64,000 nt of DNA from an uncultured Candidatus Peregrinibacteria bacterium (GCA_903825315.1 CAIKAD010000004.1:6298-70297); one strand, 5' to 3'; counted from the stretch's first letter, positions 11,680-39,203 are shown. The notes: generated by a model from the letters alone, not told the origin. Numbers and translations: made by a program.

Positions 11680-11695
11680 AATTGGTCCTGTTGAC

Positions 11696-11811: not shown

Positions 11812-11814
11812 TAT

Positions 11815-13403: not shown

Positions 13404-13446
13404 TTTCTCTGATGCCACAAATGCTTCCACCTGCTACGCTACACGC

Positions 13447-14209: not shown

Positions 14210-14319
14210 GTGGTAGTAGGTGGTAGGTAATAGGTTGTAGGTGGTACAAAAAAAGAGCGATTGTTTCACTACTCCTCGTATGGATGTACTACAGCCTACC
14301 ACCTACAAGCTACAACCTT
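14210..14319. repeat. palindromic intergenic element, 7-nt-period arms, copy 2 (inverted relative to copy 1)
   Basis: The reverse complement of 14271-14319 is AAGGTTGTA|GCTTGTA|GGTGGTA|GGCTGTA|GTACATCCATACGAGGA. It shares a 21-nt identical block (TGTAGTACATCCATACGAGGA) with copy 1, but two 7-mers are swapped. Lies between convergent stops (14196 and 14339). Confidence 0.8.
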
Positions 14320-14338
14320 CTGAAATCGATATAAAACT

Positions 14339-18387: not shown

Positions 18388-18831
18388 ATGAACATCCAGC
18401 ACTTTGAGAAAGGACTGCACTACAGCGACCGTGATTTGGTACTGCTCGCAAAAAAGATCGGGCGTCTCGCCACCTACTGTGACACACTCAAAGACGAAGC
18501 ATCTTCTATCCGCGTGGAGGCGGAGCGCCGGCCCACCAAGAAGGACCGCGATCAGGTAAAGGTAATGATTACCGTGGATTTGCCAAAGAAAAGGTTCCGC
18601 GTGGAGTCGCGCCGCAAGAGTCCCATTGATGCCATTGACCGTTGCATCGAAAAGCTGGAGCCGCAGATCAAGAAGTACAAGGAGCTGCGGACGGGGAGGG
18701 GAAAGGCTGCCAAGTATGCCCACACCGGTAAGCGGAAAAAGCCGGAGAACCTGGATGTGGATTTACCGCAAGCCCTTGCAGACTTTGAGGTTCCTGCCCG
18801 GCCGCGGCGCTCTCCCCGCACGTCCCGCTGA
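18388..18831 (+). CDS. hpf: ribosome hibernation promoting factor (HPF/RaiA, S30EA family)
   Basis: 147 aa. Family-typical beta-alpha-beta pattern ...VKVMITVDLPKKRFRVESRRKSPIDAIDRCIEKLEPQIKKYKE, with a basic C-terminal tail. Confidence 0.8.
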   Translation: MNIQHFEKGLHYSDRDLVLLAKKIGRLATYCDTLKDEASSIRVEAERRPTKKDRDQVKVMITVDLPKKRFRVESRRKSPIDAIDRCIEKLEPQIKKYKELRTGRGKAAKYAHTGKRKKPENLDVDLPQALADFEVPARPRRSPRTSR

Positions 18832-20327: not shown

Positions 20328-20328
20328 C

Positions 20329-20413
20329 CGTTTCTCGACCCTGTCTCGTTTTTCGTTTTTCGATTCCTTCATTTTACGTCCTATCGAACAACGAGAAATG
20401 GTCGAAAAACGAG
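20329..20413. repeat. intercistronic palindromic element, 9-nt-period arms (CGTTTTTCG family)
   Basis: Left arm CGTTTCTCG|ACCCTGTCT|CGTTTTTCG|TTTTTCGAT (20329-20364). 17-nt loop. Right arm ATCGAACAACGAGAAATGGTCGAAAAACGAG (20383-20413) is an imperfect complement. Lies between the 7TM stop and the ATP-grasp start. Confidence 0.75.
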
Positions 20414-20462
20414 TAACAATCCTCCCCCGTTCAAAGGGATAACGGTATCCTATCCATCTTCC

Positions 20463-22857
20463 ATGGTCCGCTTACTGAACCACGGCATCCTCGGCCTCAA
20501 CGCACGGAACCTGCTGTACCTGCGGCCGTTCAATCCCCAGCGAGCGGTGGCATTTGCGGACAGCAAGCTCAAGACCAAGGCTTTTCTCTCCGCGCGTGGC
20601 ATTCCCATTGCACGAGTCTTTGCTCGCATCGAGAACCGATGGCAGCTCAAGGCGTTTAACTTTGATCTCTTGCCCGAGGAATGCGTCCTCAAACCCAACT
20701 TTGGATACGGGGGAGAGGGAATCCTCATCCTTAAGGGGCGCAAGGACGGCGTGTTCCTGGAAGAGGGCAGGGTGGAAGTTCCCGAGGAGCGCTTACGCGA
20801 GCACATCGAGAACATCCTGGAGGGGCAGTACTCCGTCAACGGGCGGCCGGACATTGCGTTCTTTGAACAGATTCTCGTTCCCCACGAAGGCTTTACGCAG
20901 TTCCGTCCAGCGGGGCTCCCGGATATCCGCATCGTGGTGTTCAATCTCGTTCCGGTGATGGCGATGCTCCGTATTCCCACGGCGGAGAGCCGCGGCAAAG
21001 CAAACGTACATCAGGGTGGCATCGGTATCGGCATTGACATCGCCAAAGGCGTCACGACGCATGCGGTGCAGCGTGACAAGGCCATTACAGAGCTTCCCCA
21101 TGGCGGTCCCGTGCGGGGAATCCCCATTCCGCATTGGGAGGAGATGCTTCTCCTTGCCTCGCGCATCCAGGCGGTAACCAACATCGGCTACCTGGCGGTG
21201 GACTTTACGCTCGACCGCACGCAGGGCGTCACGCTCCTGGAAGTCAACGCGCGTGCCGGCCTCATGTTGCAGATCGCCAACCTCTCGCCTCTCCGGCGGC
21301 GCCTGGAGCGCGTCAAAGGCCTCAAGATCGGAACGCCGGAAAAAGGGGTGCGCGTGGCACAAGACCTCTTTGGCCATAAAGTCAAAAAGCCCGTTAGGGA
21401 GCCGGAGCTCGACCGCCCGCGTCTTGGCGTGCATGAGGCCATTACCGTCCTCTGCCGGGGCGCCAGCGTGGAAATCCCCGCACTTATCGCGCCGGCGTTT
21501 ACAGAGCAGTCCGTGTTTGCGCAGGATCTCATTGGAGAATTACAGGGTCTGGGCGGTGTCACGGAGGAGGAGGGAGGTGAGGACCGGCGCTTCCATGTGA
21601 AATTCACGCTGGGTGGCCGCAAAGTCCAAACGCTCGTTCACGTGGGGACGGTCCCGGAGGGCAAGGCCCGTGCCGTCATCGGCCGCCGCGACCTAGCGGG
21701 CTTTTACATTGATCCCGCAAAAGAGCCCACGGTCCCCACATCCGCCGGCACGCGCGTAAAGGCCAATCTCCAAGCGACGGACCGTATCCTGGCGGACATC
21801 GATGAGGAGCTCCTTCTCCTCAAGTATCTCAAGCCCATTAACCTCGCCGAGGAGCGGGCGCGCGTGGAGGATGATGACGATGCGCAGCCTTTCTTCCTCT
21901 ACCCGGAGGCGGCGCTGGACCTGAACGCGGCGGAGGACAAACTTCTTCGCCTCCAGAGTGACGAATCGCCGCTCGGGGAATTGCTCAACAAGAAGCGGAA
22001 GGAACTTCTCTTGCGCATCGACCTGCTGCGCGCGCGGGAATTCCGCACGGTTCACTGCCGCCTCCCGGGCGCTCTTTGGAGCGCCGCGCGCGGACCTGAT
22101 GGGAGATGCGCAGCAATATCTTCTCTCGCGTGTCGCCTGCGATCTTCCGCCTCCCAAGAAAGTGATGCTCACTGCGGACGAGGCGGCGGCGACCTTTGAG
22201 AGTGAGCTCTCTGCATACGGGTTGCACGACTGGCGTGTGTTGGTGCGCAGTGCGCTCGTGGCGGACTGCACGGTGGGATGGAAGCGGCTGTACCTGCGGC
22301 AGGGGGCGCTCTTTTCCCCGGAGCACGTGGCATCCCTCGTGGCGCACGAGATTGAGACGCACATCCTCACCTCGGAGAACGGGTCGCAGCAGCCCTCCAC
22401 GCTCTTCCGTCGCGGCTTTGCCAACTATCTCGAGACGCAGGAGGGGCTCGCCGTCTTCAATCAGAACCGTGTCCTTTCCCCTTATCACGAGAAGCGCAAT
22501 GGGCCGGCACGCAGCGTGCTTGCGGTCGCATATGCGCTGGAGCATTCCTTTGTGGATCTGCGGCGATACCTACAGGAGGAACTGGGTTACCGTTCCGCCA
22601 AGGCCCTTACCAAGGCGATCGAACTCAAGCGCGGCCTTCACGACACATCGGAACCCGGATCCTTTACCAAGAGCCTCGTCTACTTCCGAGGCTGGCGGGC
22701 TGTGGAGCGGTTCGCGGGGCAGGGGGGCGATCTCCGCCGACTCTACATTGGCAAGATCGCGCTGGAGGATCTGGAGCTCGCCGAGAAGGTTCCGGGAGTC
22801 AAAAAGCCGGCGATTATTCCAAATTTCCTCCGGGGAGAGGGAAAGGTTACGGGGTAG
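20463..22857 (+). CDS. ATP-grasp (RimK-related alpha-L-glutamate ligase-like) + degenerate retropepsin-like (RimB/Zn_protease-type) + MATCAP/DUF1704 (QEGLA) metallopeptidase fusion, interrupted by one frameshift
   Basis: ORF-track pieces are 20463..22199 and 21958..22857. ATP-grasp region at about 20463-21362 (GILGLNARNLLYL...). Retropepsin-like region at about 21417-21716 (ends AVIGRRDLAGFYIDP). The DUF1704 N-part runs to about 22035 in frame 1 and continues in the +1 frame (ARGNSARFTAASRALFGAP...), with HEIETH and ETQEGLAVF. The frame switch lies in GCGCGCGCG at 22028-22036. Confidence 0.75.
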
Positions 22858-23069
22858 ATTGTTTATTGTTTCCTCTTCCCCTAGCCCCCTCTCCGGTGGA
22901 GAGGGGGAATGTATGTGTTCTGTGTAAGCTTGTTCCTGTGCGTTGTCCTGACGTTCAACAAACCTCTCATTGAAAATATTGGCATTGTCCTGGCAAGCGG
23001 TGCGCCCCCTTTCTCCCCCGGAGAAAGGGGGTTGGGGGGATAGAGGAAACATACAACAAAAAAACAAAC
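22857..23069. repeat. composite inverted-repeat element with two G/C hairpins
   Basis: Outer arms GTTTATTGTTTCCTCTTCCCCTAG (22861-22884) and GGGGGGATAGAGGAAACATACAAC (23034-23057) are inverted. Inner hairpins are CCCCCTCTC/GAGAGGGGG (22885-22907) and CCCCCTTTCTC/GAGAAAGGGGG (23005-23031). Lies between convergent stops. Confidence 0.7.
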
Positions 23070-23099
23070 AACGACGTTCGGCATGCTTACTGTTCGCGC

Positions 23100-23804
23100 T
23101 TACTTCTTCCCTCCCTCCTTCTTGCCCTTCTCGGCGGGGGCAGCAGCCCCCTCTGCTCCCGGAGCAGCTGCACCTTCGGCCGGGGCTGCGCCCTCGGCGG
23201 GCACGGCGCCTTCGGCAGCGGACGGCGGGGCGATTTCCTCTTCCTTACGCGGCTCCTGGATGGTGGCGACGACTGTGTGGGGTTCCTCCATCACCTTAAC
23301 GCCCTTGGGGAGCTTGAGGTCCTTTACGGCAACGGAGGAGTGGAATTCCGTCAGACTCGAGATATCGAGTTCGATCGAGTGCGGAAGGTCTGCAGGGAGA
23401 CAGCGCACCGTAACGTGCTCGTGCGCTATCACGAAGATGCCGCCCAGATCCTTTACTGCCGGCGCCTCGCCGATGAAGCGCACGGGAACCGGCGCCTCGA
23501 TTTCTTCCTTCATGTTCACGGCGTAAAAATCTGCATGCTCCTCGCGCCCGGAAATCGGCTCAAAGGAGATGTCCTTGAACAGCACGGGGATCTTTTTCCC
23601 CTCCACATCCAGCTCCACAAGGGTGCTTTCTCCCGCCTTAACAAAGACCCGGTGTAATTCCCGCTCTTCGCAGGAAATGGACAAATCCTTCACTTCAAAG
23701 CCGTACACAATGCAGGGTACGCGACCTTCCCGCCGCATCTTCTTCGGCTTGGCGGAGGCATCACGGGGCTGTGCTTTGAGGGGGATCATTTCCATAAGAG
23801 CCAA
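23100..23804 (-). CDS. rplY: 50S ribosomal protein L25 / general stress protein Ctc (long form)
   Basis: 234 aa. L25 N-domain (REGRVPCIVYG...), Ctc C-domain, Ala/Glu/Gly-rich tail. TTG start at 23804; the ATGs a few codons downstream are alternatives. Confidence 0.9.
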   Translation of the reverse strand: MALMEMIPLKAQPRDASAKPKKMRREGRVPCIVYGFEVKDLSISCEERELHRVFVKAGESTLVELDVEGKKIPVLFKDISFEPISGREEHADFYAVNMKEEIEAPVPVRFIGEAPAVKDLGGIFVIAHEHVTVRCLPADLPHSIELDISSLTEFHSSVAVKDLKLPKGVKVMEEPHTVVATIQEPRKEEEIAPPSAAEGAVPAEGAAPAEGAAAPGAEGAAAPAEKGKKEGGKK

Positions 23805-23862
23805 GGTAGGGTAAGGGATGAGGAGATTGAGGTCAATAGCTTTGAGGGGGTGTCAAGTGAGG

Positions 23863-23981
23863 AAGAAGAAACCGAAGAAACCAATGAATCCGAGGAATCC
23901 GAGGATAAATGAGCAGATGTTTTAAGAGCTGAGAGATGGCCGCCCCTCGGTCTCCTCGGTTTCTTCGGATTCATCGGTACC
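23863..23981. repeat. palindromic intergenic element, 9-nt-period arms (GAAACCGAG/GAATCCGAG family), copy B
   Basis: Left arm GAAGAAACC|GAAGAAACC|AATGAATCC|GAGGAATCC. 38-nt centre. Right arm CTCGGTCTC|CTCGGTTTC|TTCGGATTC|ATCGGTACC. The arms match copy A with 2 mismatches in 37 nt against the opposite arm. The centre shares GCAnATGT..AA....TGAGAG with copy A. Confidence 0.85.
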
Positions 23982-24049
23982 CTTTCAAAAGTACAACTTG
24001 TACCCCCTCCTGTCCGCGGGTAGCATCTCAGATTGATCCCCCCCATTCC

Positions 24050-24907
24050 ATGGTCGATTCCCTTGGCAGCCTCCTCTCCAAAAGCTGGGCCTTTTGCCGA
24101 GCGCAGTTTGTTCCCATACTCCTCGGAGCGCTCGTTGCCGGTGCCGTGTCACTTGTCCTTACGCTCAGTATTGTGAACAAGATGTCGCAGGGGGCTAACA
24201 ACGCCCTCAACCGCCTGGGGGTGGATCGTGGGCGCCTGGAGGACCTGCAGCGCCGCGCGCAGCAGGGTGACCAGCAGGCAACGCAGGAATTGCAGCAGGA
24301 GGTGCAGCGTACACTCGGTAACTTTTCGGAGAAGGACCTCCAGAACCTCGGTGGGGCATTTGCGGGGGACATGGCGCGGACATTCTTCTCCCCCTATTCC
24401 CTTCTCCTTATCCTGGGGATGATCATCGTGAGCTTTGCCTTTCAGGGGTACATCCTGGTACTGCTCCTCGAGAAGAAGCCGGCACAGGAAGCGTTTGCGA
24501 GAACGGCATCCCTCATCCTTCCTCTCATCGGTTTGAGTCTTTGGACCGCTCTCCGGACATTCATCTGGATTCCCATCATTGGCATCATCCCGTTCATCAT
24601 TCTCGCGCCGCGGTTCGTACTGGCGCCCGTCCTACTGGTGCGTGACGGGAAGGGTGTGTTGGAAAGCACGCGCATCAGTTACCGCAGGACTGCGGGATAT
24701 TGGGGCAAGATCGTGGGGAACGTCATTGTGGCGGTTATCCTCGTCGGCATAGCGGCGGCCGCTATCAATGCCATTTTCAATGCCATTCTCGGAATGTCCC
24801 TCGCGTCCTACCTCACACCCTTTGTGCAGATGGTCACAGGCGCCTTCACGGGGGTGTTCATCGGGTATCTAGGATTGACGATCCTTGGCTCGAAGCAGTC
24901 GGCGTAA
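24050..24907 (+). CDS. hypothetical polytopic membrane protein (DUF975/UPF0259-like by eye)
   Basis: ORF 23936..24907 with the start moved to the ATG at 24050 (MVDSLGSLLSKSW...). About 6 TM segments with a Gln-rich helical loop. The 3' end overlaps the convergent GT2 gene by 50 nt. Confidence 0.55.
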   Translation: MVDSLGSLLSKSWAFCRAQFVPILLGALVAGAVSLVLTLSIVNKMSQGANNALNRLGVDRGRLEDLQRRAQQGDQQATQELQQEVQRTLGNFSEKDLQNLGGAFAGDMARTFFSPYSLLLILGMIIVSFAFQGYILVLLLEKKPAQEAFARTASLILPLIGLSLWTALRTFIWIPIIGIIPFIILAPRFVLAPVLLVRDGKGVLESTRISYRRTAGYWGKIVGNVIVAVILVGIAAAAINAIFNAILGMSLASYLTPFVQMVTGAFTGVFIGYLGLTILGSKQSA

Positions 24908-25643
24908 GAAGGCGCCACTTCCAGAAATACTTACAGGCGCTCCAGAGGTGGATGCGCACCGTCTTCTTGGTGAAGAACGACAGGAACCCGCCCTCGCTCA
25001 GGCGGTGCTTGCGGTCTCTGGCATGGGCGGCAGGGAAGTAGACCACCCGCATGCCGGCCTGATGCGCGCGGCGGCAGAGGTCCGTATCCTCAAAAAAGAG
25101 GAAGAAGCGCGGGTCAAACCCTCCCAGACGCTCATACAAGTCCCGCCGCATGAGAAGGCAGGCGCCTGCCAGCCAGTCCACATCGCGTGCCAGTTCAGGG
25201 TTCACATCATGCTGCAGATAGCGCCGCATGCGGCCCGGGAACATGTGCCGGAGGAACGTTCTCTTAATGAAGAGGTCGGTGAACGTGGGGAATGTACGGA
25301 ACGAGTCGCGGATTGTCCCGTCCTGGTGCACCAGCTGCGGTCCCAGGATGCCGATGGTGGGATCTCCCTCCATCACGCGGGCCATCTTCTCCAAGCCGTC
25401 CGCTTCCAGCTCGTTATCCGGATTAATAATCAGGATAAAGGCTCCCTCCGCCCGCATAATCCCCGCATTGTTCCCCCGGCCGTAGCCGCTGTTGCGGCTG
25501 GTTTCGATGATTCTCACCCGCTGTTCTTTGCCGAACGTGTTCCGGATAATGCCGATGGAGTCGTCCTGCGAGTGATTGTCGACAATGAGAACTTCCATCG
25601 TGTCGGCGATACTTTGCTTCAGCAAGGCGCGTACGCACCGCAC
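24858..25643 (-). CDS. family 2 glycosyltransferase (GT-A fold); 5' end unresolved
   Basis: VDNHSQDDS, SRNSGYGRGNNAG and INPD motifs. The track start (GTG 25643) cuts off the conserved first strand PLVSAIVLNYRTPKDT, which is encoded in frame at 25644-25691. No canonical start lies upstream (see findings). Confidence 0.85.
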   Translation of the reverse strand: MRCVRALLKQSIADTMEVLIVDNHSQDDSIGIIRNTFGKEQRVRIIETSRNSGYGRGNNAGIMRAEGAFILIINPDNELEADGLEKMARVMEGDPTIGILGPQLVHQDGTIRDSFRTFPTFTDLFIKRTFLRHMFPGRMRRYLQHDVNPELARDVDWLAGACLLMRRDLYERLGGFDPRFFLFFEDTDLCRRAHQAGMRVVYFPAAHARDRKHRLSEGGFLSFFTKKTVRIHLWSACKYFWKWRLLTPTASSQGSSILDTR

Positions 25644-25687
25644 GGTGTCTTTGGGGGTGCGGTAGTTGAGGACGATGGCGGAGACGA

Positions 25688-25750
25688 GAGGATCCAGAGG
25701 AAGCAGAGGATACAGATGATGCAGAGGATGCAGAAGAGAGGATAGCGAGG
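25688..25750. repeat. block of seven 9-nt units (GAGGATGCA family), block 1
   Basis: GAGGATCCA|GAGGAAGCA|GAGGATACA|GATGATGCA|GAGGATGCA|GAAGAGAGG|ATAGCGAGG. Directly abuts the conserved N-terminal codons of the GT2 gene and is open in its frame. Confidence 0.85.
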
Positions 25751-25836
25751 AAGGACGGATTTCAACAGATATTCAGTGAGGGTTCTTTCTTTACCATTGA
25801 TGCAGTCCTCCCGAAAGTAGTCCGGAGTGCATGCTC

Positions 25837-25871
25837 TTGTGTACACAAATGTGCTATTAAATGTGTACACA
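25837..25871. promoter_or_regulatory. duplicated palindrome TGTGTACACA (candidate operator)
   Basis: TTGTGTACACAA (25837-25848) and TGTGTACACA (25862-25871), with centres 24 bp apart, in the region upstream of the GT2 gene. Function is not shown by sequence. Confidence 0.3.
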
Positions 25872-25902
25872 GGTTGCAGAAGATGCAGAGGATGCAGAGG
25901 AA

Positions 25903-26259
25903 TCAGAGGAGGGAGGCGTGGAGTTTGTGGAGGAGATATCCCACTCGTTGGATGTGGTCGTCGAAATGTTCAAGTTGGGTTTGTGTGAGGTAGCCCAGTG
26001 CTTTTGTGAGGAGGGTCTGGTAATGGAGTTCTTCCAGGGAACCCATGGCGATTTCGACGAAATGTCGACGTTCTCCCTGTGCTCGCCTGCCATTCCCTTC
26101 GGCTATATTCGTGGGGACGCTGTAACTGGACCGTCGCATCTGACTTGTCAAACCATATCGTTCTTCGCGAGGGAATGTCTTTGTGACTGCATAGATTTCT
26201 ATGCAGAGCTTGTGGGCTTCTTGCCAAACAATGAGTCGCTCATAAGGACGGATGCGCAT
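25903..26259 (-). CDS. four helix bundle protein (23S rRNA-intervening-sequence protein / Avd-like family)
   Basis: 118 aa. Family pattern LIVWQEAHKL...FPREERYGLTSQMRRSSYSVPTNIAEGNGR...IAMGSLEEL. The last codons (SLL*) lie inside repeat block 2. Confidence 0.9.
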   Translation of the reverse strand: MRIRPYERLIVWQEAHKLCIEIYAVTKTFPREERYGLTSQMRRSSYSVPTNIAEGNGRRAQGERRHFVEIAMGSLEELHYQTLLTKALGYLTQTQLEHFDDHIQRVGYLLHKLHASLL

Positions 26260-26340
26260 GGAGATAGCCTGGAACAGGTGCAGGAGGATGTCTTCATCCG
26301 TTCAAGAGGAAAGTTCGAGGTGGATCGTTCTTTTTGCATC

Positions 26341-26384
26341 AAGAAAACAAAAGACCGGTTCTCTGCGAGGAGAGAACCGGTCTT
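26341..26384 (-). terminator. rho-independent terminator downstream of hppA
   Basis: 13-bp perfect stem AAGACCGGTTCTC (26351-26363) / GAGAACCGGTCTT (26372-26384). On the minus strand it is followed by TTGTTTTCTT. Confidence 0.8.
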
Positions 26385-26422
26385 CTTCTGCATTGTCTGC
26401 ATCTCCTGATTCCTCTATATCC

Positions 26423-28492
26423 TCACATGAACAGAGCCGCCAAAGCCAACGTCAGCGTGGAGAACAACTTGATCAAGACGTGCAGCGACGGACCCGCAGT
26501 GTCCTTGAAGGGATCGCCAACGGTGTCGCCGGTTACGGCTGCCTGGTGCGCAGGGCTGCGCTTGCCGCCGTGAAGGCCGGTCTCAATCAACTTCTTGGCG
26601 TTGTCCCAAGCACCGCCGGCGTTGTTCAGATAGGCGGCCATGAGGACGCCCACAATGGTGCCTACCATCAACATGCCTGCCACAGCTTTTGCGCCCAGGA
26701 TGACGCCGATGAGGATGGGGGCGAGAACGGCCACAAGGCCGGGGAGGACCATTTCCTTGAGCGCGCCCTTGGTGGCAATGTCCACTGCTGCGGCGTAGTC
26801 CGGATCCACGGTTCCCTCCATGATTCCCTTGGTCTCGCGGAACTGACGACGTACTTCCTCGATGATCACGCTTGCGGCGCGGCCGACGGCGCGGATGGCG
26901 AGGGAGGTGAAGAAGAAGACGACCATGGCGCCAAGGAAGGCGCCGATGAACACCTTCATGTCGGCCAAGTTGATCACATCCAGTTTCTTCTCTTCCATGT
27001 AAGCGGAGAAGAGGAGGAAGGCGGCGAGGGCGGCCGAACCGACGGCGTAGCCCTTGGTGAGCGCCTTGGTCGTGTTCCCTGCCGCGTCCAACTCATCCGT
27101 CACGGTGCGGTACTCCTCCGGGGACTTGGACATCTCCACAATGCCGCCGGCGTTGTCCGTAATGGGTCCGAACATGTCCATGGAGAGCACGTAGCCGACC
27201 ACGGAAAGCATGCCCATGGTGGCGATGGCCGTGCCAAAGATGCCGCCGCCGGGGATGCCGGACTGGTTGCCGAACCAGTAGGAGGCGAAGAGCGCGAGAG
27301 AGACGACGAGCACTGTCAGTCCCGTCGATTCCATGCCGATGGCCGTGCCGGAGATGATGTTGGTGGCGTGGCCGGTCTTGGAGGCATCTGCAATGGCGCG
27401 GACGGGGCGGTGCTGTTTGCCCGTGTAGTAATCTGTAATGTACACGAACGCGACGGCCGTGAGCACGCCCGCGAGGCCGGCAAGGAAGAACCAGAGCCAG
27501 GAGCCGGGGTTATCGGGAGAGGAGAGGAGGAGCTTGGTGGAGGCAAGGAGAGCCAGGGTGGCCAGGATTGTCGTGACCCAGAAGCCGCGTGTGAGGGCCT
27601 TCATGGGCAGTTCGTTAGGCTTTGCCTTGACCGTGTAGACGCCGATGATCGCCGCAATCAAGCCGATGGAGCGGAGGATGAGCGGGAACATGATGCCGGG
27701 GAGGCCAAAGGCAACTGCGCCGAGCACCATGGCGCCGATGTTCTCGGCGGAGATGGATTCAAAGAGGTCCGCACCGCGTCCTGCGCAGTCGCCCACGTTG
27801 TCGCCAACGAGGTCGGCCACCACGGCCGGGTTGCGGGGGTCGTCTTCCGGAATGCCTGCCTCAATCTTTCCTACCAGGTCTGCACCCACATCCGCAGCCT
27901 TGGTGTAGATTCCGCCGCCGAGTTGGGCGAACAACGCCACAAAGCTGGCGCCGAAGCCGTAGCCCACGATGAGATTGGGAATGTTCGCCGGCTCGTAACC
28001 GAGGACCAGGCGGTAGACCAGGTAGAGGCCGCTGATTCCCAGGAGGGAGAGCGCCGTGATGACAATTGCGGGGACCGTTCCTCCGCGGAGTGCCATCTGG
28101 AGCGCCGCGTTGAGGCCCTTGCGGGAAGCGCTGGCGGTCTTCAGGTTGGCGCGCGTGGCAACGTACATGCTTACGATGCCGGAGAGGCCGGAGAGGACGG
28201 CGCCGAGGAGGAAGGAGATGGCGATTTCGATGCCGGAGGTCCAGCCGCCTTCGCCGCTCGTGATGCCGTAGACGAGCATCATGCCGGCAGCCACCACGAT
28301 GGAGAGGATGGCGATGGTGCGGTACTGGCGCTTGACGAAGGCGTTGGCGCCTTTGAGGATGGCGCTGGCGACCTTCTGCATGGCGGGCGTACCGTTGTCA
28401 GCCTTCTTCAGGGCGTTCCAAAAGACGAGGCTGTAGACGAGGCCGCAGAGGGCCACAACAGGGGCGATGAGCTCGAGAGTCAGATCGCTCAT
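26423..28492 (-). CDS. hppA: membrane-bound proton-translocating pyrophosphatase
   Basis: 689 aa, about 16 TM. Motifs GDNVGDCAGRGADLFES and GDTVGDPFKDTAGPSL. GNTTKA (Lys at the A/K switch position) suggests the K+-independent H+-pumping type. Confidence 0.95.
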   Translation of the reverse strand: MSDLTLELIAPVVALCGLVYSLVFWNALKKADNGTPAMQKVASAILKGANAFVKRQYRTIAILSIVVAAGMMLVYGITSGEGGWTSGIEIAISFLLGAVLSGLSGIVSMYVATRANLKTASASRKGLNAALQMALRGGTVPAIVITALSLLGISGLYLVYRLVLGYEPANIPNLIVGYGFGASFVALFAQLGGGIYTKAADVGADLVGKIEAGIPEDDPRNPAVVADLVGDNVGDCAGRGADLFESISAENIGAMVLGAVAFGLPGIMFPLILRSIGLIAAIIGVYTVKAKPNELPMKALTRGFWVTTILATLALLASTKLLLSSPDNPGSWLWFFLAGLAGVLTAVAFVYITDYYTGKQHRPVRAIADASKTGHATNIISGTAIGMESTGLTVLVVSLALFASYWFGNQSGIPGGGIFGTAIATMGMLSVVGYVLSMDMFGPITDNAGGIVEMSKSPEEYRTVTDELDAAGNTTKALTKGYAVGSAALAAFLLFSAYMEEKKLDVINLADMKVFIGAFLGAMVVFFFTSLAIRAVGRAASVIIEEVRRQFRETKGIMEGTVDPDYAAAVDIATKGALKEMVLPGLVAVLAPILIGVILGAKAVAGMLMVGTIVGVLMAAYLNNAGGAWDNAKKLIETGLHGGKRSPAHQAAVTGDTVGDPFKDTAGPSLHVLIKLFSTLTLALAALFM

Positions 28493-28706
28493 AAGGAGTG
28501 GGGGAAGATAGTTACGAAAACCTCCAGCGGAGGGCTGATTTCTGGCAGAGCGTAAGGGAAAGGGGGGGGAAAGGCAATATGGAGAGGAGGCCGAGGATTC
28601 TGACGATGCCAGGGATGCCGAAGAATACAGTTTTTGTCATAAGGATATCTTTGGAAAAGTGCATCGGACTCTTCGGAATTGTCGGCAACTTCGGCATTCT
28701 AGAGCC

Positions 28707-31184
28707 ATGAGTCCGTCATTCACGCCATACGCGAGACAGTTTGGGTATGATGGGGGCCACTTCCAGCGGAAGACTGTGCCCAGAAAAAAGGAAAAAGTCG
28801 GCAATCCGCGTCTTGCGACGCTGCGTAAACGCGTGGCCAAGGCTCCCACGGAGCCGGGTGTGTATCGCTGGATGGATGACGAAGGAACGGTTTTGTACGT
28901 CGGCAAGGCGAAGAACCTGAGGAACCGTCTGCGGTCGTACGTTACCAAAGATACGGGGGCGGGACCGTGGAAGCAGAGTTTCCTCGAGCAAATTACAGAC
29001 TTTGATGTGACAGTTACGAATACCGAAATCGAGGCGCTGATCTTTGAGACGAATCTCATCAAAGAATTGAAGCCGAAATACAACATCCTGATGAAGGATG
29101 ACAAGAACTATATCTACGCAAAGGTGACGGTGCAGGATCCCTTTCCACGCGTAGAAGCTGCGCGGAAGATTGCGGAGGATGGTTCAAAATATTTCGGACC
29201 GATGGCGACGGGCGGAGAGCTGTGGGCGATGCTGACAATGCTGAGGGCTATCTTTCCGTTTAGGACGTGTTCGATGGAGATTATTCCCCAAAGGAAGAAG
29301 GAAACCGAGGAATCCCAAGAAACCGAGGAAACCGAGGGGGTGCAGAAGAAAGATAGGATCGTATTGGAGGTGGAGTGTCATCATAAAGATCGTCCGACAC
29401 CGTGCCTGGATTTTCACATCGAGAAGTGTTCGGCGCCGTGCATTGGGAGAACAATGCCGGAGGAGTATCACAAGGAATCCGTCGAAGGCGTCATCAGGTT
29501 TCTCAAAGGCGACTACGAGAGCGTGCGGCCTGTCATTCAGGAAAGAATGAAGAAGGCCGCCGTGGAGAAGAAATTCGAGCTGGCGGCGCAGTTCCGTGAC
29601 TATCTGGCCGCACTGGACCGCCTTGAAGGGAAGCAGCTGATTACGGACACGTCCGGCGGGGATTCGGACATCATCGCCATTGCCGTTCTCTCCGGCCGAG
29701 CTGATGTGGTCATTATGCAGCGACGCGGGGGACGGTTGATCGGGGACAGGAACTTTTCCCTCGCCGGCCACGCGGAGAATTCCAGTGACGTGCTCGAACA
29801 ATTCCTCCCGCAGTTTTACGAGGAGGGATCGGAAGTACCGGAAGAAATTCTGGTCAATGCGTCACTCCCGGGGAAGGGGACACTGGAGGAATGGCTGACA
29901 GCTAAGAAGGGGCGCAAGGTCAACATCATCCTGCCGGCGCGTGGACGCAAATCCCATCTTCTCCAGCTGGCGGAGAAGAACGTGCTCGAAAAGGCCAGGC
30001 AGCGTGAGGCAAAGTGGGAAGCGGAAAAGCGGAACACGGAATCGGCGCTCGCACAGCTCCAAGAGTTGCTTTTGCTTCCCTCTGTACCGAAGCGCGTTGA
30101 GGGCTATGACATCAGTCACTTGGGCGGTACGGAAACCGTTGGGAGCATGGTCGTGATGGTCGATGGCAAGGCGCGCAATGATTTGTACCGGTCGTTTACC
30201 ATCCGCACCCTGCGTTCCGGCCAGGTGGATGATTACCAGGCGCTCAAGGAAGTGCTGGCACGGCGACTCCGCCACCTGCCGGAGATCCGCGAAGCGGAAA
30301 TGCAAAAGTGGGAGGAGGCGGGCATTACGTTAGGCAAGGCGAAGAAGGCGGAGCAGGAGCAGTTGGAGGCGGTGGTTCTGGAGGCATCCACGCTGAAGGA
30401 CCGCCCGCTCCAGTACAAGGAATGCTTTGTAGCGCGCGAAGGGGAGACTGTGGTCGCCGTGGGAAGGATCATTAGGCATCCTACGGCTCTGTTGGAGATT
30501 GAGCTCGCATGGGTCGCAGAACCGTACCAGCAGGGCGCGCTTGGCCAGGCGCTGCTGCGGACCATGCTCAAGACGGTGAAGAAAGGGAAGGCATATGTGT
30601 GCGTGGAGGCGGATAAAGAGAGCGCCTACGCGTCCCTCGGGTTCCGGTATGTCATCAAGCCTCCTCCGCTGTTTCAGGAAAGGGTGCAAACAGTAGGCTC
30701 AGGAACGGCCGCCTCTCTCGTGATGATGTACGAGGCGGCGCAGAACAAGGTGGATCCATCTCTTTCCTCCCGCCCCGATCTCCTCGTGATGGACGGCGGC
30801 AAGGGGCAGTTGAGTTCGGTCGTGGAGATCCTCAAGATGTTTAAGGTGGATATTCCCGTCATCGGCCTCGCCAAGCGGGAAGAGGAGGTGTTTGTGGACG
30901 ATCAGAGGGATCCCGTCCCATTCCCACACGACTCCCCTGCAAAGTTTCTGCTCATGCGGCTACGGGACGAGGCCCACCGATTCGCCAACCGCCACCGCGA
31001 GGCGCGCGGCAAGAAATCGACCAAGGCTTCCATCCTCGATGCTGTTCCGAGTTTGGGGGAGGAGGGGAAGAAGAAGCTGCTTAGAAAATTCGGGAGTATC
31101 TCGGGAATTCGGGAGGCTGCGGACGGGGAGCTATTGGAAATGTTGAGTGAGCTTCAGGTGCGGGAGTTGCGGAGGCATCTGTAA
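28707..31184 (+). CDS. uvrC: excinuclease ABC subunit C, unusually long (about 825 aa) with insertions
   Basis: GIY-YIG domain (PGVYRWMDDEGTVLYVGKAKNLRNRLRSY ... ETNLIKELKPKYNI), UVR domain (FELAAQFRDYLAAL), endonuclease V-like domain (VEGYDISHLGG ... LLVMDGGKGQL ... RDEAHRFA), and (HhH)2 at the C-terminus. The start is uncertain (ATG 28707 chosen). Confidence 0.9.
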   Translation: MSPSFTPYARQFGYDGGHFQRKTVPRKKEKVGNPRLATLRKRVAKAPTEPGVYRWMDDEGTVLYVGKAKNLRNRLRSYVTKDTGAGPWKQSFLEQITDFDVTVTNTEIEALIFETNLIKELKPKYNILMKDDKNYIYAKVTVQDPFPRVEAARKIAEDGSKYFGPMATGGELWAMLTMLRAIFPFRTCSMEIIPQRKKETEESQETEETEGVQKKDRIVLEVECHHKDRPTPCLDFHIEKCSAPCIGRTMPEEYHKESVEGVIRFLKGDYESVRPVIQERMKKAAVEKKFELAAQFRDYLAALDRLEGKQLITDTSGGDSDIIAIAVLSGRADVVIMQRRGGRLIGDRNFSLAGHAENSSDVLEQFLPQFYEEGSEVPEEILVNASLPGKGTLEEWLTAKKGRKVNIILPARGRKSHLLQLAEKNVLEKARQREAKWEAEKRNTESALAQLQELLLLPSVPKRVEGYDISHLGGTETVGSMVVMVDGKARNDLYRSFTIRTLRSGQVDDYQALKEVLARRLRHLPEIREAEMQKWEEAGITLGKAKKAEQEQLEAVVLEASTLKDRPLQYKECFVAREGETVVAVGRIIRHPTALLEIELAWVAEPYQQGALGQALLRTMLKTVKKGKAYVCVEADKESAYASLGFRYVIKPPPLFQERVQTVGSGTAASLVMMYEAAQNKVDPSLSSRPDLLVMDGGKGQLSSVVEILKMFKVDIPVIGLAKREEEVFVDDQRDPVPFPHDSPAKFLLMRLRDEAHRFANRHREARGKKSTKASILDAVPSLGEEGKKKLLRKFGSISGIREAADGELLEMLSELQVRELRRHL
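29301..29339. repeat. solo 9-nt-period repeat arm embedded in frame in uvrC
   Basis: GAAACCGAG|GAATCCCAA|GAAACCGAG|GAAACCGAG|GGG is almost identical to the left arm of the intergenic element at 13291-13327. It is translated as ETEESQETEETEG. No complementary arm is nearby. Confidence 0.8.
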
Positions 31185-31185
31185 C

Positions 31186-32037
31186 TTATTTCCGCGTCGC
31201 ATGGACACCGAGTTTGACGTACGTGAATCCATCGGAAGGCTCAAGTAACGTTGCCGGAGCATGCGCAGCATAGGCGTCTGCATATCGTGTATCTGTTTGT
31301 GAAAGGTGCGTGCAGCCTTCTCCCGGGAAGATCTTGCACTGCTGCATGGTCCAGCAACGGGGATCAAACGCTTCGCACAGCATGCCCATATGGTGCACGT
31401 GGTCTTGCAAGGGAACGTCGCCCTGCGTGGTGTGGAGGACGTGGCGGAACATCTGCGCATGCGGGTATGCACCATGCAGAGAAGAATCGAAGAGATCGAT
31501 GTCTCCATACGTAATTTGGTCACTTGGAATGAATGCGTTGCTCGTAAAGTACAGGGATCCACCGGTTTTGAGGCAAGTGGCGATGGGGTTGGTGGCGCAG
31601 CGGGGATGCGGAAAGCACACGGCATTAAAGCTGCTCACAGCCGCGTCCACGTGCCGGGCACTTCCGAGCTGAGGCAGGAATGTTTCCAGAGATGCCAGTG
31701 CATGTACTTCCTGCCGCGTTTGTAATCGTTCAAGGAGACAGGCGAGGGCAAAGCTGTCCGTACATTCCAAGATCTCCTTGTTGCCGGAAATGTTTTCCAG
31801 CATTGCGCGGGAACTGTCTACACCGAGCAGTGTTCTCCCGTGCCCCCGTAGGTTGGGGAACAGCCGTCCAGATCCGCACCCGGCATCAAGAACAATGCCC
31901 GTACCAGGCAGTGTTTCGCGGAGTACATCATGGAGCCAGTCGTTAATGCCTCGCTCGACAAGCTCGCCGTTCCCAATGCCCGAAACGGACTTGTAGGATT
32001 CCGCTGCCGCTACTGAGTACTGCTGGGCTTCGTCCAT
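31186..32037 (-). CDS. class I SAM-dependent methyltransferase
   Basis: 283 aa with motif I VLDAGCGSGRL. Its stop lies 1 nt from the convergent uvrC stop. Confidence 0.75.
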   Translation of the reverse strand: MDEAQQYSVAAAESYKSVSGIGNGELVERGINDWLHDVLRETLPGTGIVLDAGCGSGRLFPNLRGHGRTLLGVDSSRAMLENISGNKEILECTDSFALACLLERLQTRQEVHALASLETFLPQLGSARHVDAAVSSFNAVCFPHPRCATNPIATCLKTGGSLYFTSNAFIPSDQITYGDIDLFDSSLHGAYPHAQMFRHVLHTTQGDVPLQDHVHHMGMLCEAFDPRCWTMQQCKIFPGEGCTHLSQTDTRYADAYAAHAPATLLEPSDGFTYVKLGVHATRK

Positions 32038-32131
32038 GGCGGGGGAGTGTGTGCGCAGGAGGCTTCCAAGTCAATTTCTTTGCATTTTGCTCCTGCCATT
32101 CATACAATGGAGCATCTTTCCACCAACAACT

Positions 32132-32437
32132 ATGAAACGTTTCTCGCTCCTCCTCGGTGCCATCGGCGGTGCACTCGGCGGCTATCTCCTCACCAACGAA
32201 AAACTCCGTACAGACCTCATGAAGACTAAGAGCCCCGAGGCGGCGGCCAAGCTGCTTGGCAAACATCTGCAAACCGATGGCAAGAAGATTGCCAAAGAAG
32301 CCAAGGCCTTCCTTGAGAGCGATGACGTGCAGAAAAACCTCTCCAAGGCCAAAAAGCTCGCCACGGCCAAGTTTAAGGAAGCCAAGAAGGAGGCGAATCG
32401 GCTGATCAAGCGAGCGACCAAGGGGAGTGAAGCTTGA
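32132..32437 (+). CDS. small Lys-rich membrane-anchored protein (YtxH-like by eye)
   Basis: ORF 32036..32437 with the start moved to the ATG at 32132 (MKRFSLLLGAIGGALGGYLL). Followed by a Lys/Ala/Glu helical tail. Confidence 0.45.
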   Translation: MKRFSLLLGAIGGALGGYLLTNEKLRTDLMKTKSPEAAAKLLGKHLQTDGKKIAKEAKAFLESDDVQKNLSKAKKLATAKFKEAKKEANRLIKRATKGSEA

Positions 32438-32503
32438 TCCTGGGCGATTCCGGTAATGGATTCCGCCTAGGACATGCTAGCCAAGAAGGAGGCAGAAGTT
32501 TTT

Positions 32504-34681
32504 TCAGTGCTGTATCCAGGCGCTCTGCCGCCACTCGCGGCACTTTGCGGATTCCTGTAATGCTCGTTCCCTCTCTTCGCAGAAGCGATCGGGAATGACA
32601 TTCCGGACTATTCCTGTTTGCGCAAATGACGTGAGAATGTCTGCTGCTTCCTGCGCCTGGTCAGTTGTGAGGAGCGAAATGCAGCGCAAAACTGTTTCGT
32701 CCAGTGTCCCCCGGGCTGTTTCCATGAGGTGCTGGCGGTATTCATGTTCGTAGAAATCGTCTCCTACGAGGATGATGGGGAACGGACCGGTGAGGATAGC
32801 GACGTCCGTTTCTGCAATCCCGCGCTCCTCCCTTGTTCCGCCGCCACCTTCCAGCTGCACCACGCCGCCCGTCACTGCGCGCGCCATGTTTCCCTGGCGG
32901 AGATCACGCGCCTCGTTGCGGCAGGGCATGAGGCCGTCGAGATGCCTGTTCATAGGCTCCTTTTTCACACCGAGAACGTGTCCTATAGAAAGGAATCCAT
33001 GTTCACGCGCCAGGCGGTTTGCGATACCCATCGTGCTGTCATTCGGCCCGCCACCCGAATGGATTACGCGCGGTTTACCGTTTCGCATTGCGTCGAGATG
33101 TTCGAATAATTCTTCCATGAAGCCGATGTATTGCGGACTAAGGGTCCGTGCTGTCCCGTAGAAGGCAATATGGTTTCCATTGAGGAATTCCGTACGGCGG
33201 TGCGGGGGGACGAATGCGATGGAGTGACTCAATCCCCGCTGCAGGCGCGTGAGCTGCAGCAGGGCGCCTTCGTCCATGTCCGCGTGCGGGCCCTTTCCAA
33301 ACATTTTGTCGTTGAGCCAGAAGACATCGATTTTTTTGTCGCAACAATCGAGCAGTGCATGGTAATCGGCACCGGAGAAGTACGGGCCGTGCGCGGCGGA
33401 CGGGTGCCGGAAGAGGAGTGTGCTGATAACGTGGCGGCCTTGTTGCACGTCCGCTTCCAGGATGGTCCTGAGGGCAGCGTGTTGCGGCAGGACTTCGCTG
33501 ACGAGTACTGCGCCTGCATCCATGCCCATTTTCTGCGCCTGGCGCAGGAGGCGTGTTTCGCTGGATTCGGCGGCATCCCGGGTGATGTTGGTCTGTTCGG
33601 GGGCGAAAGGAGTACGAAGCTGTTTCGACCGAGCCAGATGCCGTTCACGATCCGTGGGATATCCCGACAGGCGCATCCAAGGACTCTTTTCATGCGTCAT
33701 CATGTGCTCAATACCTATGCTATTCAGTACCAATGCCGAAGCCCTAGCAGCATGATCGTGGGCGGAAAACTCTTCCACGCTGCTCAACAGTTCCTGCGCT
33801 TTGCTAAAAGAGGACGTGAGGATGTGCCGGGCGCTTTCTTCCGGAACATCGGGAGCGAGGAGATGGGCCGGTCGGCGGTCATAGAGGGAAAAAGCGACAG
33901 GGGGCAAATCCTTTGGCTCAAACGGTCGGGAAGGGGGGACAGCGTCGAAAGCGATGAAGTTGCCATCTTGCGTATCGGCAAGGATGTCCTGCCGGAGTTG
34001 GCCCGGCAGAATGGCGATGTCGTGGAAACGCGCGCGAATGCCCCGGATCCGCTGTGCGATGAATTGCCCCGGCTGCAGGATCTCGTTGCGGCCCAGCTGT
34101 TGCCACACTGGTGCCGATTGTTCGTGCGTCTTGCCCGGCGAAACGAAGAGGCGGCTCTGCAGGAGTTCCGTCCGGTGCTGTTTGCCAGCTTCGGGGTAGT
34201 AGAGCAGATGCCCCGGCGTTCCCCGGGCGTAGAATCTTGTCGCACTTCCATCCTGTGGCAGGGCATCGAGGTGCTCGTCCGACATTTCCAAAAATCCCTG
34301 CGAAACCGCGAAAGCCGCACGATGTGCGCTTATGGGCTTCCTGCCATCAAAGTGGTGCGGCCGTGCGACATACATTCCTTCCCGGATGAGGGGGAGGAGA
34401 TTATCCCGAACGCCGTCATGGATTTGTCGCAGCACGGCGGTCACGTGCAGTTCCCCTCCTTCCCATCCCGTCTGTTGCGTTTCAAGGATGACGCCGTGCG
34501 CAAGAAGCATGCGCCGAGCCATGACGTGCAGTTGCGCCATGTCCTCTTTGCAGAGTGCGAGAAAATCTGCGCTGCTCTGACGGCCTGCAAGCTCTACGGA
34601 TAGTTCTTCGCCACTGCCCCGGGGTTCCCCGACAACCTTGAGGTAATCACCCGTAAAACTGAGGAGGTCCCCGTTGCGCAT
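32504..34681 (-). CDS. uncharacterised ~490-aa N-terminal region fused to a LOG/SLOG (TIGR00730-like Rossmann) domain
   Basis: 725 aa. The C-terminal third shows the LOG pattern: IAFYGTAR..., IHSGGGPNDSTMGIANRLA, and TGGVVQLEGGGGTREE (the PGGxGTxxE motif with E in place of P), then PIILVGDDFY. Confidence 0.7.
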   Translation of the reverse strand: MRNGDLLSFTGDYLKVVGEPRGSGEELSVELAGRQSSADFLALCKEDMAQLHVMARRMLLAHGVILETQQTGWEGGELHVTAVLRQIHDGVRDNLLPLIREGMYVARPHHFDGRKPISAHRAAFAVSQGFLEMSDEHLDALPQDGSATRFYARGTPGHLLYYPEAGKQHRTELLQSRLFVSPGKTHEQSAPVWQQLGRNEILQPGQFIAQRIRGIRARFHDIAILPGQLRQDILADTQDGNFIAFDAVPPSRPFEPKDLPPVAFSLYDRRPAHLLAPDVPEESARHILTSSFSKAQELLSSVEEFSAHDHAARASALVLNSIGIEHMMTHEKSPWMRLSGYPTDRERHLARSKQLRTPFAPEQTNITRDAAESSETRLLRQAQKMGMDAGAVLVSEVLPQHAALRTILEADVQQGRHVISTLLFRHPSAAHGPYFSGADYHALLDCCDKKIDVFWLNDKMFGKGPHADMDEGALLQLTRLQRGLSHSIAFVPPHRRTEFLNGNHIAFYGTARTLSPQYIGFMEELFEHLDAMRNGKPRVIHSGGGPNDSTMGIANRLAREHGFLSIGHVLGVKKEPMNRHLDGLMPCRNEARDLRQGNMARAVTGGVVQLEGGGGTREERGIAETDVAILTGPFPIILVGDDFYEHEYRQHLMETARGTLDETVLRCISLLTTDQAQEAADILTSFAQTGIVRNVIPDRFCEERERALQESAKCREWRQSAWIQH

Positions 34682-34723
34682 AATGAATCTTTACTTCACA
34701 CAATATACATTGTCAATCGCTAG

Positions 34724-37127
<2,404 letters not shown>

Positions 37128-37129
37128 AG

Positions 37130-38902: not shown

Positions 38903-38918
38903 GGAAACCGAAGAAACC
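38901..38918. repeat. two solo 9-nt units of the GAAACCGAG family right after the pyrK stop
   Basis: GAGGAAACC|GAAGAAACC. No partner arm was found. Confidence 0.5.
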
Positions 38919-39203
38919 GGGGAAAATATTTGTCGAACCCTCACATGATCCATACACTTGCCGCTCAGCCGTTGGGCGGTGCGCCCCTTTGCCTCCGTTG
39001 GGATCGTGAGGTGTATTCTGGATGGTTGGCACTCGTCAAGGGAGAGTGCTAGACACGGGGCTTTCGATCCGATAAACTATTCCTGTCTTCTAATTCTTTC
39101 CCGTTCATTCTATGACGTACGGACCCGGTTCTTGTGGCGGTTGCGGATGCGGCTTCAATGGCCCGAGTGGGCAATGCTGCTAAGCAATATTCGTCGCAAT
39201 CGA

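Follow-up and report, generated by a model that had tools for sequence, protein, structure and literature searches.

The window analysed here, a 64,000-nt stretch of DNA from a Candidatus Peribacteria bacterium (Peregrinibacteria, Candidate Phyla Radiation or CPR), carries between hppA and a family-2 glycosyltransferase (GT2) gene a 118-aa open reading frame (ORF) of the PF05635 family, enclosed by inverted arms that are built of 9-nt tandem repeats. We propose, with a probability of roughly 0.6, that this locus belongs to a widespread type of stem-loop cassette that corresponds, outside rRNA, to the intervening sequences (IVSs) of 23S rRNA, with arms that repeat every 9 nt in Peribacteria and every 7 or 8 nt elsewhere. 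The stem-loop architecture is near-universal for PF05635 genes in Peribacteria and recurs in three other phyla.

A stem-loop cassette between hppA and a glycosyltransferase gene

Read on the minus strand, the order is hppA, purine arm, hairpin with T-run, spacer, 118-aa ORF, pyrimidine arm, spacer, second pyrimidine arm and GT2 gene, as listed here with the evidence for each part (L followed by three digits labels compared loci or stretches outside the window).

26423..28492, minus strand: hppA (H+-pyrophosphatase), upstream neighbour (PF03030, E = 7e-255)
26384..26424, minus strand: upstream (5') arm, purine-rich on the coding strand, four 9-nt units (inverted pairs, RARGAnnnM profile)
26339..26386, minus strand: terminator-like hairpin of 16 pairs (26349-26386), then a T-run (hairpin prediction; same module in 17 loci)
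26260..26338, minus strand: spacer of ~80 nt from hairpin to start codon, presumed own promoter of the gene
25903..26259, minus strand: gene for the 118-aa protein, a predicted four-helix bundle, PF05635 23S_rRNA_IVP / TIGR02436 (PF05635, E = 5.5e-37)
25868..25915, minus strand: downstream (3') arm, pyrimidine-rich on the coding strand, block 2 (Tandem Repeats Finder and inverted-repeat search)
25753..25867, no strand: 115-nt spacer separating the two same-sense arms, with two perfect palindromes inside
25684..25752, minus strand: second 3'-type arm, block 1, also complementary to 26384-26424 (repeat searches)
24858..25700, minus strand: family-2 glycosyltransferase, downstream neighbour (domain search, comparison with L019 and L014)

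The cassette fills the space between its host genes from stop codon to start codon. Its 5' arm (GAGGATATA GAGGAATCA GGAGATGCA GACAATGCA) begins on the hppA stop codon (26423-26425), which it overlaps by 2 nt, its 3' arm (...CTCCTCTGA TTCCTCTGCA TCCTCTGCA TCTTCTGC) takes in the stop codon and the last four codons of the PF05635 gene, and block 1 overlaps the glycosyltransferase reading frame at its 5' end. The repeat word of this cassette is GAGGATGCA. The internal hairpin has the form CGTTCY-loop-RGAACG followed by TTTT, and a sigma-70 promoter scan of the cassette returned no consensus match. G+C content is ~50% in the cassette compared with ~60% in the flanks, where the neighbours are hppA, the GT2 gene, uvrC and a gene for L25. 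A preliminary description of the locus had reported three 9-nt-period blocks, with the ORF between blocks 2 and 3 and its end inside block 2, and with block 3, which is inverted, on the hppA stop codon. Our repeat, inverted-repeat and domain searches bear out each of these placements and put the blocks at about 25684-25752, 25868-25915 and, inverted, 26384-26424.

Two 9-nt arrays are called by Tandem Repeats Finder, one of 5.3 copies (score 68) at 25687-25734 and one of 4.4 copies (score 52) at 25871-25910, and a repeat search follows the family in 9-nt register over 25671-25751 and 25853-25933. The 5' arm is complementary to both downstream arms, with 25688-25737 matching 26384-26424 over 41 nt at 78% and 25866-25915 matching 26383-26424 over 28-37 nt at 76-79%; the inverted arms around the ORF, 28-41 nt long and 76-79% complementary, are of the kind that encloses the ORF of an IVS. 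In the RNA minimum-free-energy fold 25868-25915 pairs with 26384-26424, closing the whole cassette (z = -4.5). Over positions 1-41400 of the window there are 17 blocks of period 7-9 that are at least 27 nt long, where 50 shuffles averaged 0.34 and never exceeded 3, and in shuffled flanks none of 286 periodic blocks found an inverted partner. Chance or a low-complexity coding artefact is ruled out by these shuffles together with recurrence in about 90 independent loci. L001 and L002, both public assemblies, match the window at 99.97% identity over 18425-36492, without differences in the repeats, and the three assemblies, which represent the same strain in different samples, hold an identical cassette in a single orientation.

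The enclosed protein

The 118-aa protein matches PF05635 at 126.7 bits (cut-off 33.8) over residues 7-111 and TIGR02436 at 118.5 bits (cut-off 24), and in an alignment of 30 sequences 12 columns are invariant and 22 nearly so, including an N-x-A-E-G motif. Among solved structures its nearest relative is XCC0516 of Xanthomonas campestris (PDB 2GSC, an entry with five chains; E = 6e-22, aligned over residues 4-93), and similarity to this structure suggests a four-helix-bundle fold. The best homologues are 64% identical and, where they have a taxonomic name, all belong to Peribacteria, Peregrinibacteria or Patescibacteria; named best homologues of the other local proteins likewise come from this group without exception. 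No relatives were found among viral contigs. Besides PF05635, the only domain match is bAvd (PF22296, E = 3.8e-10), which points to the four-helix-bundle superfamily fold of Avd. Avd itself is the nucleic-acid-binding partner of a reverse transcriptase. We tried and rejected assignment to the Avd of a diversity-generating retroelement: the protein scores 40.8 bits against NF033474, where the equivalog cut-off is 80, and there is no reverse transcriptase among the Pfam-scanned neighbours or the genes called in L001. No template or variable repeats of such an element were noticed at the locus. Neither a nuclease nor a recombinase match was found with Pfam, NCBIfam and PADLOC, and the defence-system models of PADLOC gave no match.

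In public gene calls a spurious 182-aa ORF lies opposite the PF05635 gene (L001 10084-10632 and L002 3205-3753, equivalent to 25861-26409 on the plus strand of the window), and an exact look-up of the 118-aa product in protein collections returned no record. The protein is missing from the collections for this strain because the public calls take the opposite strand, and such cassettes are therefore under-annotated.

Recurrence in Peribacteria and in other phyla

A protein-alignment scan with one genome per species gave 80 loci, nearly all from Peribacteria, of which 78 were usable; at each, the 300 nt upstream of the gene were aligned with the reverse complement of the 300 nt downstream and set against shuffled controls. 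Inverted flanks score above the shuffled-control maximum at 70 of the 78 loci (median score 39 vs 19), and an ungapped search recovered five of the eight that fail, whose downstream arm sits within an over-extended ORF. The preliminary description had allowed that its two cases in the window could be coincidental, should other genes of the family lack such flanks; about 75 of 78 Peribacteria loci have arms, which speaks decisively against coincidence. The arm period in these loci is nearly always 9 nt, with a few at 8. The downstream arm mostly starts within a few bases of the stop codon, and arms that abut neighbouring stop and start codons, as first remarked in the window, are seen in many loci. 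Purines make up more than 60% of the 5' arm in 67 of 70 loci, which is true of either strand because the structure is palindromic. Aligned in phase, the units give the profile R-A-R-G-A-n-n-n-M, in which positions 1-5 are common to all 9-nt cassettes and three positions are free, forming a locus-specific triplet. The 9-nt words of different cassettes, which had been called unrelated, are therefore variations on one theme, with only positions 6-8 free to differ.

Seventeen loci carry the hairpin module directly after the 5' arm; it is a conserved part of a 'long-gap' class of cassette. In the short-gap class no conserved core ends are visible beside the arms, and many loci have -10-like boxes near the ATG. 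At one locus of another Peribacteria species (L017 4893-5290), the gene within 9-nt-period inverted arms is rpsQ, for ribosomal protein S17; here the polarity is opposite (pyrimidine arm first), with the upstream arm in the spacer just past the preceding gene's stop and the downstream arm in the region that encodes the low-complexity C-terminus of S17 (EKSEKSDMSGKSERS). Such arms are therefore not confined strictly to PF05635 genes.

The window holds a second cassette of this kind.

36520..37128, minus strand: cassette 2, with a 111-aa homologue (33% identical) at 36629-36961 and three 8-nt-period arms

The arms of cassette 2 (37090-37128, 36580-36612 and 36520-36562) reach the stop codon of pyrG on one side and the start of the following gene on the other. 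The two cassettes were said to share both architecture and a 9-nt period; they do share the architecture, but the unit of cassette 2 is the 8-nt GAGTAACA.

Outside Peribacteria, Xanthomonas and Stenotrophomonas have relatives of XCC0516 in the space between accB and accC, and 3 of 3 Xanthomonadaceae loci show inverted arms. These arms are (GGGAATC)4 and (GATTCCC)4, the first beginning five bases past the accB stop and the second ending at the accC ATG, and they are the same GGGAATC heptamer arrays that Rehm et al. described in Xanthomonas as G-quadruplex-forming repeats, with roughly 180 dispersed arrays, including ~70 convergent pairs per genome, in a paper that makes no link to a PF05635 gene (PMC4692102). 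A further set of 12 genes, on plasmids of Calothrix, Nostoc, Anabaena, Pseudanabaena, Geminocystis and Picosynechococcus plus Gemmatirosa, has inverted 7- or 8-nt arms in 10 cases, with a word private to each locus (for example TAGGGAG x5 at 97% complementarity). Several of the cyanobacterial plasmid cassettes (L170, L173, L174 and L178) are internal to operons, in the nrdB-nrdA interval, between cas6 and cas4 (in two genera) and between cas10 and cmr3. Conservation of architecture rather than sequence, as the preliminary description had it, holds for the Peribacteria, plasmid and Xanthomonadaceae loci alike, with the correction that the 9-nt words have a five-position consensus and that the period is typical of the lineage (9, 8 or 7).

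Concerted change, inversion, gain and loss

In three other species (L019, L014 and L003) a cassette occupies the identical site; its arm likewise starts at the stop codon of hppA, and it has the same hairpin module inside. The 'hppA terminator hairpin' of the preliminary description, correctly placed inside the arms, therefore belongs not to hppA but to the cassette, as a conserved internal module of one cassette class. Concerted change of the word on both arms, inversion between the arms and the scattered gene-less hairpins, all described below, had escaped that description. The orthologous units are GAGGACCCA (seven copies, L019), GGGGAAGCA/GGAGATTCA (L014) and GAGGACTCA (L003), compared with GAGGATGCA in the window, and in each of the three the partner arm carries the complementary triplet. 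Arms thus evolve in concert: the free triplet differs between orthologues and matches across both arms and across the units within an arm. In L014 (3360-3500) the downstream arm is also directly duplicated (36 nt, 100% identical, preceding TAA included, ~95 nt apart), an arrangement that parallels blocks 2 and 1.

Over evolutionary time the inner segment, consisting of promoter and gene, inverts between the arms. A base-by-base comparison of L010 with L021 finds colinear flanks, a reversed inner segment and unchanged arm polarity (the purine arm stays left). Of 27 orthologous pairs in which both near flanks are homologous, 11 are colinear; the other 16 are inverted and have their breakpoints within the arms. 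Both orientations occur in six of nine orthologue clusters, with no inconsistent edges. Three of the inverted pairs are mutual best protein matches at 70-80% identity, which favours flipping in place. One might read such flips as the work of a programmed switch, in which the arms serve as crossover sites and inversion turns the gene, or its effect on transcription or termination of the neighbours, on and off. Flipped pairs with breakpoints in the arms would suit a switch, and so would the one-sided terminator-like hairpin of the long-gap class, since inversion would change which neighbour is insulated. Yet the three same-strain assemblies show one orientation, no invertase or recombinase gene was present among the nearby genes scanned, arms that are 76-79% identical make poor substrates for frequent homologous exchange, and inversions between species need only rare events, all of which makes a programmed switch highly improbable.

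Gain, loss and duplication of cassettes occur together with the arms. The closest relative found, L181 (hppA 82% identical), has at this site no cassette but an ordinary GC-rich terminator and a different, unrelated small ORF; cassettes are therefore lost or replaced. Two paralogues in one genome, L061 and L073, are 88% identical over hairpin, arm, promoter, ORF and arm and have unrelated flanks, and therefore arms travel with the gene. A metagenome scan with hppA found only distant hppA genes (at most 71% identity), none with a PF05635 or glycosyltransferase neighbour, and contigs of six public runs held the same strain in two and unrelated hppA in the rest, with no cassette variant and no RNA.

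It is also conceivable that gene and hairpin have separate histories, the periodic hairpins being ordinary host features (terminators derived from tandem repeats, mRNA stabilisers or elements that couple translation) and the gene a separate selfish core that enters their apical loops or survives nowhere else. Cyanobacteria have long been known to carry intergenic hairpins of short tandemly repeated repetitive (STRR) sequences, whose function is not known and for which transcript stabilising or translation coupling has been proposed (PMC2670836), and IVSs replace the tetraloops of helices 9, 25 and 45 of rRNA (PMC4990558). Gene-less hairpins are numerous (see below), the core is found in both orientations at one site, and rpsQ in L017 also lies within 9-nt arms. 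We nevertheless consider landing in host hairpins distinctly unlikely: L061 and L073 were duplicated along with arms and hairpin module, the empty site of L181 is an ordinary terminator and not a periodic hairpin, the long-gap periodic hairpins of the Peribacteria sample all enclose a gene of the PF05635 family but three, and no conserved core ends are visible beside the arms in the short-gap class.

Gene-less hairpins

Hairpins that have arms of this type but no gene are gained and lost as clean insertions. The window has six, all of them intergenic, with short loops, and folding better than shuffles.

5326-5405: gene-less hairpin, 7-nt unit AATGACC
11686-11813: gene-less hairpin, 7-nt unit GGTAGGT
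14210-14320: gene-less hairpin, 7-nt unit GGTAGGT
13296-13408: gene-less hairpin, 9-nt unit GAGGAAACC
23857-23977: gene-less hairpin, 9-nt unit GAGGAAACC
20330-20420: gene-less hairpin, 7-nt unit TCGTTTT

The two GGTAGGT copies have arms and loop in common, as do the two GAGGAAACC copies, and these are therefore dispersed families; AATGACC we take to be the reverse complement of the cyanobacterial STRR2 (TTGGTCA). Relatives L182-L184, in which prolyl-tRNA synthetase (ProRS) is 82-86% identical, are without the three hairpins around ProRS and VIT1, with gaps of 0-62 nt vs 135-207 nt in the window, and the three hairpins are therefore insertions. One junction is that of a clean insertion of ~155 nt into a conserved spacer, and there, as at the L061/L073 junctions, no clear target-site duplication was seen. 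The 507 kb of Peribacteria DNA sampled contain 26 gene-less hairpins (12 with 7-nt, 2 with 8-nt and 12 with 9-nt units), and in this sample hairpins with 7-nt units never enclose a PF05635 gene. Single arms with the GAGGAAACC word and no obvious partner also occur in the window, one in uvrC (29299-29337, in frame, encoding ETEESQETEETEG) and one at 38901-38925, starting on the stop codon of the gene that ends at 38902.

Dispersed hairpins next to gene-bearing ones raise the question of whether the former are satellites of a master gene, much as in REPIN-RAYT systems, where a gene for a tyrosine transposase (RAYT) is associated with repetitive extragenic palindromic (REP) sequences. The protein would then be a trans-acting factor that binds, maintains or spreads the hairpins, with gene-bearing copies autonomous and gene-less ones their non-autonomous derivatives. 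Gene-less hairpins of the same build are indeed dispersed, form multi-copy families with common arms and loop and are inserted relative to close relatives, and Avd, of the same fold family, is known in general to bind nucleic acids as a reverse transcriptase partner. The word of the Xanthomonas cassettes is moreover that of the ~180 dispersed arrays with their ~70 convergent pairs (PMC4692102), and a role of the IVS ORF in mobility of the element was proposed by Ralph and McClelland, as they are cited in PMC4990558. But the protein is only ~118 aa long, predicted all-helical and without a nuclease or recombinase match, and hairpins with 7-nt units are never found around the gene. In the window, GAGGATGCA and GAGTAACA have no gene-less copies among the tandem-repeat blocks listed, and conversely the gene-less families GAGGAAACC, GGTAGGT, AATGACC and TCGTTTT have no master in the visible 64 kb of the genome. 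Nor is the association of protein residues with arm nucleotides above permutation: the top mutual information is 0.730, below the permutation 95th percentile of 0.735, and a Mantel r of 0.18 is at the level that co-inheritance would give, which supports no protein-arm recognition code and leaves nothing of the suggested co-variation between protein and arm word beyond co-inheritance. On balance we think a master with satellites unlikely.

Other features of the window

Between the two same-sense arms, upstream of the glycosyltransferase, lie two copies of the perfect palindrome TGTGTACACA (25838-25847 and 25862-25871, 14 nt apart). Similar palindromes, GTGTAC-N-GTACAC, adjoin the start codon of the PF05635 gene in L010 and L021, and the pair in the window may be an operator. 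The start of the glycosyltransferase itself (25644-25752) is anomalous: there is no ATG, GTG or TTG at the conserved N-terminus (PLVSAIVLNY), which is in frame upstream of the first such codon, GAT stands at the position of the L019 ATG, and the open frame runs on across block 1, with CTG occurring four times in frame. L019 starts with an ATG directly after the arm and L014 with a TTG within the arm. The start in the window could be a rare start codon, a sign of a pseudogene, or something stranger.

Farther out, uvrC (28659-31184) has an inserted domain like that of Gcn5-related N-acetyltransferases (GNAT) at residues ~579-665, with PF00583 above and PF13508 and PF13673 below the Pfam cut-off, and UvrC of L181 has the same domains. 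At 22027, within the gene at 20463-22199, the window has one GC fewer in a (GC)n run than L001, where this ATP-grasp/MATCAP gene encodes 798 aa compared with a 578-aa ORF in the window; the difference is either a frameshift or an assembly error. A giant ORF of more than 7,510 aa (41448-63980, minus strand) runs off the window and contains tandem repeats of 276 nt (51016-52239) and 177 nt (44427-44880).

Discussion

The known element closest in build to these cassettes is the 23S rRNA IVS. IVSs of Leptospira, Coxiella and some CPR rRNA genes, like the cassette, have an S23p/PF05635 ORF inside (PMC4990558, PMC11270868), bordered by inverted repeats that form a long stem, which is cut by RNase III (PMC4990558). 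Both are atypical in composition and sit where a looped-out insert is tolerated. The differences are that the IVS host is an rRNA helix whereas the cassette, lying between hppA and the glycosyltransferase gene, has for its host a spacer between protein-coding genes; that cassette arms are tandem repeats of fixed period; that one cassette class has its own terminator-like hairpin and probably its own promoter; and that neither inversion nor concerted arm evolution is described for IVSs in the literature we found.

The arms, for their part, resemble STRR heptamers and GGGAATC arrays, which are likewise intergenic tandem repeats, often in convergent pairs capable of forming hairpins, located near gene ends, and conserved in site while length and sequence vary (PMC4692102, PMC2670836); the arms of the cyanobacterial and Xanthomonas cassettes are such arrays. 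Peribacteria arms differ in having 9-nt, sometimes 8-nt, units with mostly locus-specific words. STRRs and heptamer arrays use one or a few words genome-wide (for example STRR1-3 or GGGAATC). Within the 64 kb of the window both cassettes have private words and gene-less hairpins share words pairwise. The G-quadruplex proposed for GGGAATC cannot apply to arms such as those of GAGGATGCA, which are without G-tracts, and the papers on STRRs and GGGAATC arrays do not connect them to PF05635 genes.

Other comparisons are more distant. REPIN-RAYT systems also consist of a single gene flanked by an inverted, short, structured repeat that is dispersed as gene-less intergenic hairpin doublets, with largely vertical inheritance and a repeat private to each family. 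RAYT, however, is a homologue of HUH/Y1 transposases and REPs are not tandem-periodic, whereas the protein here is predicted to be a small helical bundle without a catalytic signature; with PF05635 and bAvd as its only domain matches and no HUH/Y1 transposase, we rejected assignment to the RAYTs. Foldback elements and miniature inverted-repeat transposable elements have terminal inverted repeats too, and gene-less derivatives that outnumber gene-bearing copies. The inverted repeats of Foldback elements are themselves built of short tandem units. Foldback elements are, however, eukaryotic, and neither a transposase nor a clear target-site duplication was found for the cassettes. For the same two reasons an insertion sequence seems unlikely, despite the inverted ends. 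An integron attC cassette was rejected as well: the arms lie on both sides of the ORF and are inverted, the cassette stands isolated among housekeeping genes, and no integrase was found among the scanned neighbours.

What the arms do we infer as follows. In read-through transcripts, in single-stranded DNA or in both, they may pair with each other and so loop the insert out of its surroundings, as the IVS stem does in rRNA. The stop codon before the insert and the start codon after it would thereby be brought together, or the two halves of an operon transcript kept adjacent, so that insertion into an operon would be harmless. Replication slippage could homogenise the units within an arm, and recombination or template switching between the arms could both flip the cassette and keep its arms complementary; together, slippage and exchange between arms would give each cassette its private word.

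Several points weigh against our reading of the locus, the first three against its RNA part. Mismatches between arms are divided equally between the G:U type (80) and the A:C type (83), with no strand-specific tolerance of G:U, and selection on RNA pairing is therefore not demonstrated; homogenisation at the DNA level alone could explain the complementarity. At many short-gap loci the -10-like box is so near the ATG that the 5' arm would fall outside the gene's own transcript, and pairing as RNA would then need read-through from the upstream gene. We found no RNA runs that hold the window sequence, and identified neither a target-site duplication nor a recombinase for the cassettes. PF05635 proteins at orthologous sites are, among more divergent pairs, often no closer than paralogues, and part of the 'inversion' signal could thus be replacement in the other orientation. 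Finally, nothing explains why the arms need to be periodic; the preliminary description had suggested that periodicity, not sequence, may be what gives rise to the arms or lets them be recognised.

We speculate that PF05635 proteins and short tandem-repeat hairpins (STRRs, GGGAATC arrays and the 7-9-nt hairpins described here) could be two halves of a single genetic system present in several phyla, with the protein acting on the arms, although the odds are clearly against so broad a claim. The protein might bind the repeated duplex or hairpin, or promote template switching from arm to arm, inversion or copying, and in this way create, maintain or spread the arms, while the stem would let ribosomes or RNA processing bridge the insert, such that operons like accB-accC, cas6-cas4 or nrdB-nrdA keep working.

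IVS elements, STRRs and GGGAATC arrays are each already known. In the open-access literature, which could miss older subscription papers, we found nothing that links PF05635 genes outside rRNA to inverted tandem-repeat arms, no 9-nt Peribacteria variant with a five-plus-three unit, and neither concerted change of orthologous arms nor recurrent inversion of the segment they enclose. The cassettes offer a clean natural example of an inverted repeat in concerted evolution whose enclosed segment repeatedly inverts. The association of gene and arms is strong and extends across four phyla, and its culturable carriers include Xanthomonas and Nostoc. There is a real chance that the cassettes unify two unexplained features of bacterial genomes. 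Three long-standing puzzles may meet in a single type of element: what the '23S rRNA IVS protein' family does, whose genes number in the thousands and reach many copies per genome in CPR bacteria and in cyanobacteria; where short tandem-repeat hairpins come from and what role they have; and how an insertion can lie flush between the genes of an operon and do no harm. If protein and hairpins do prove to be two halves of one system, both the IVS protein and the STRRs would gain a function after more than 30 years.

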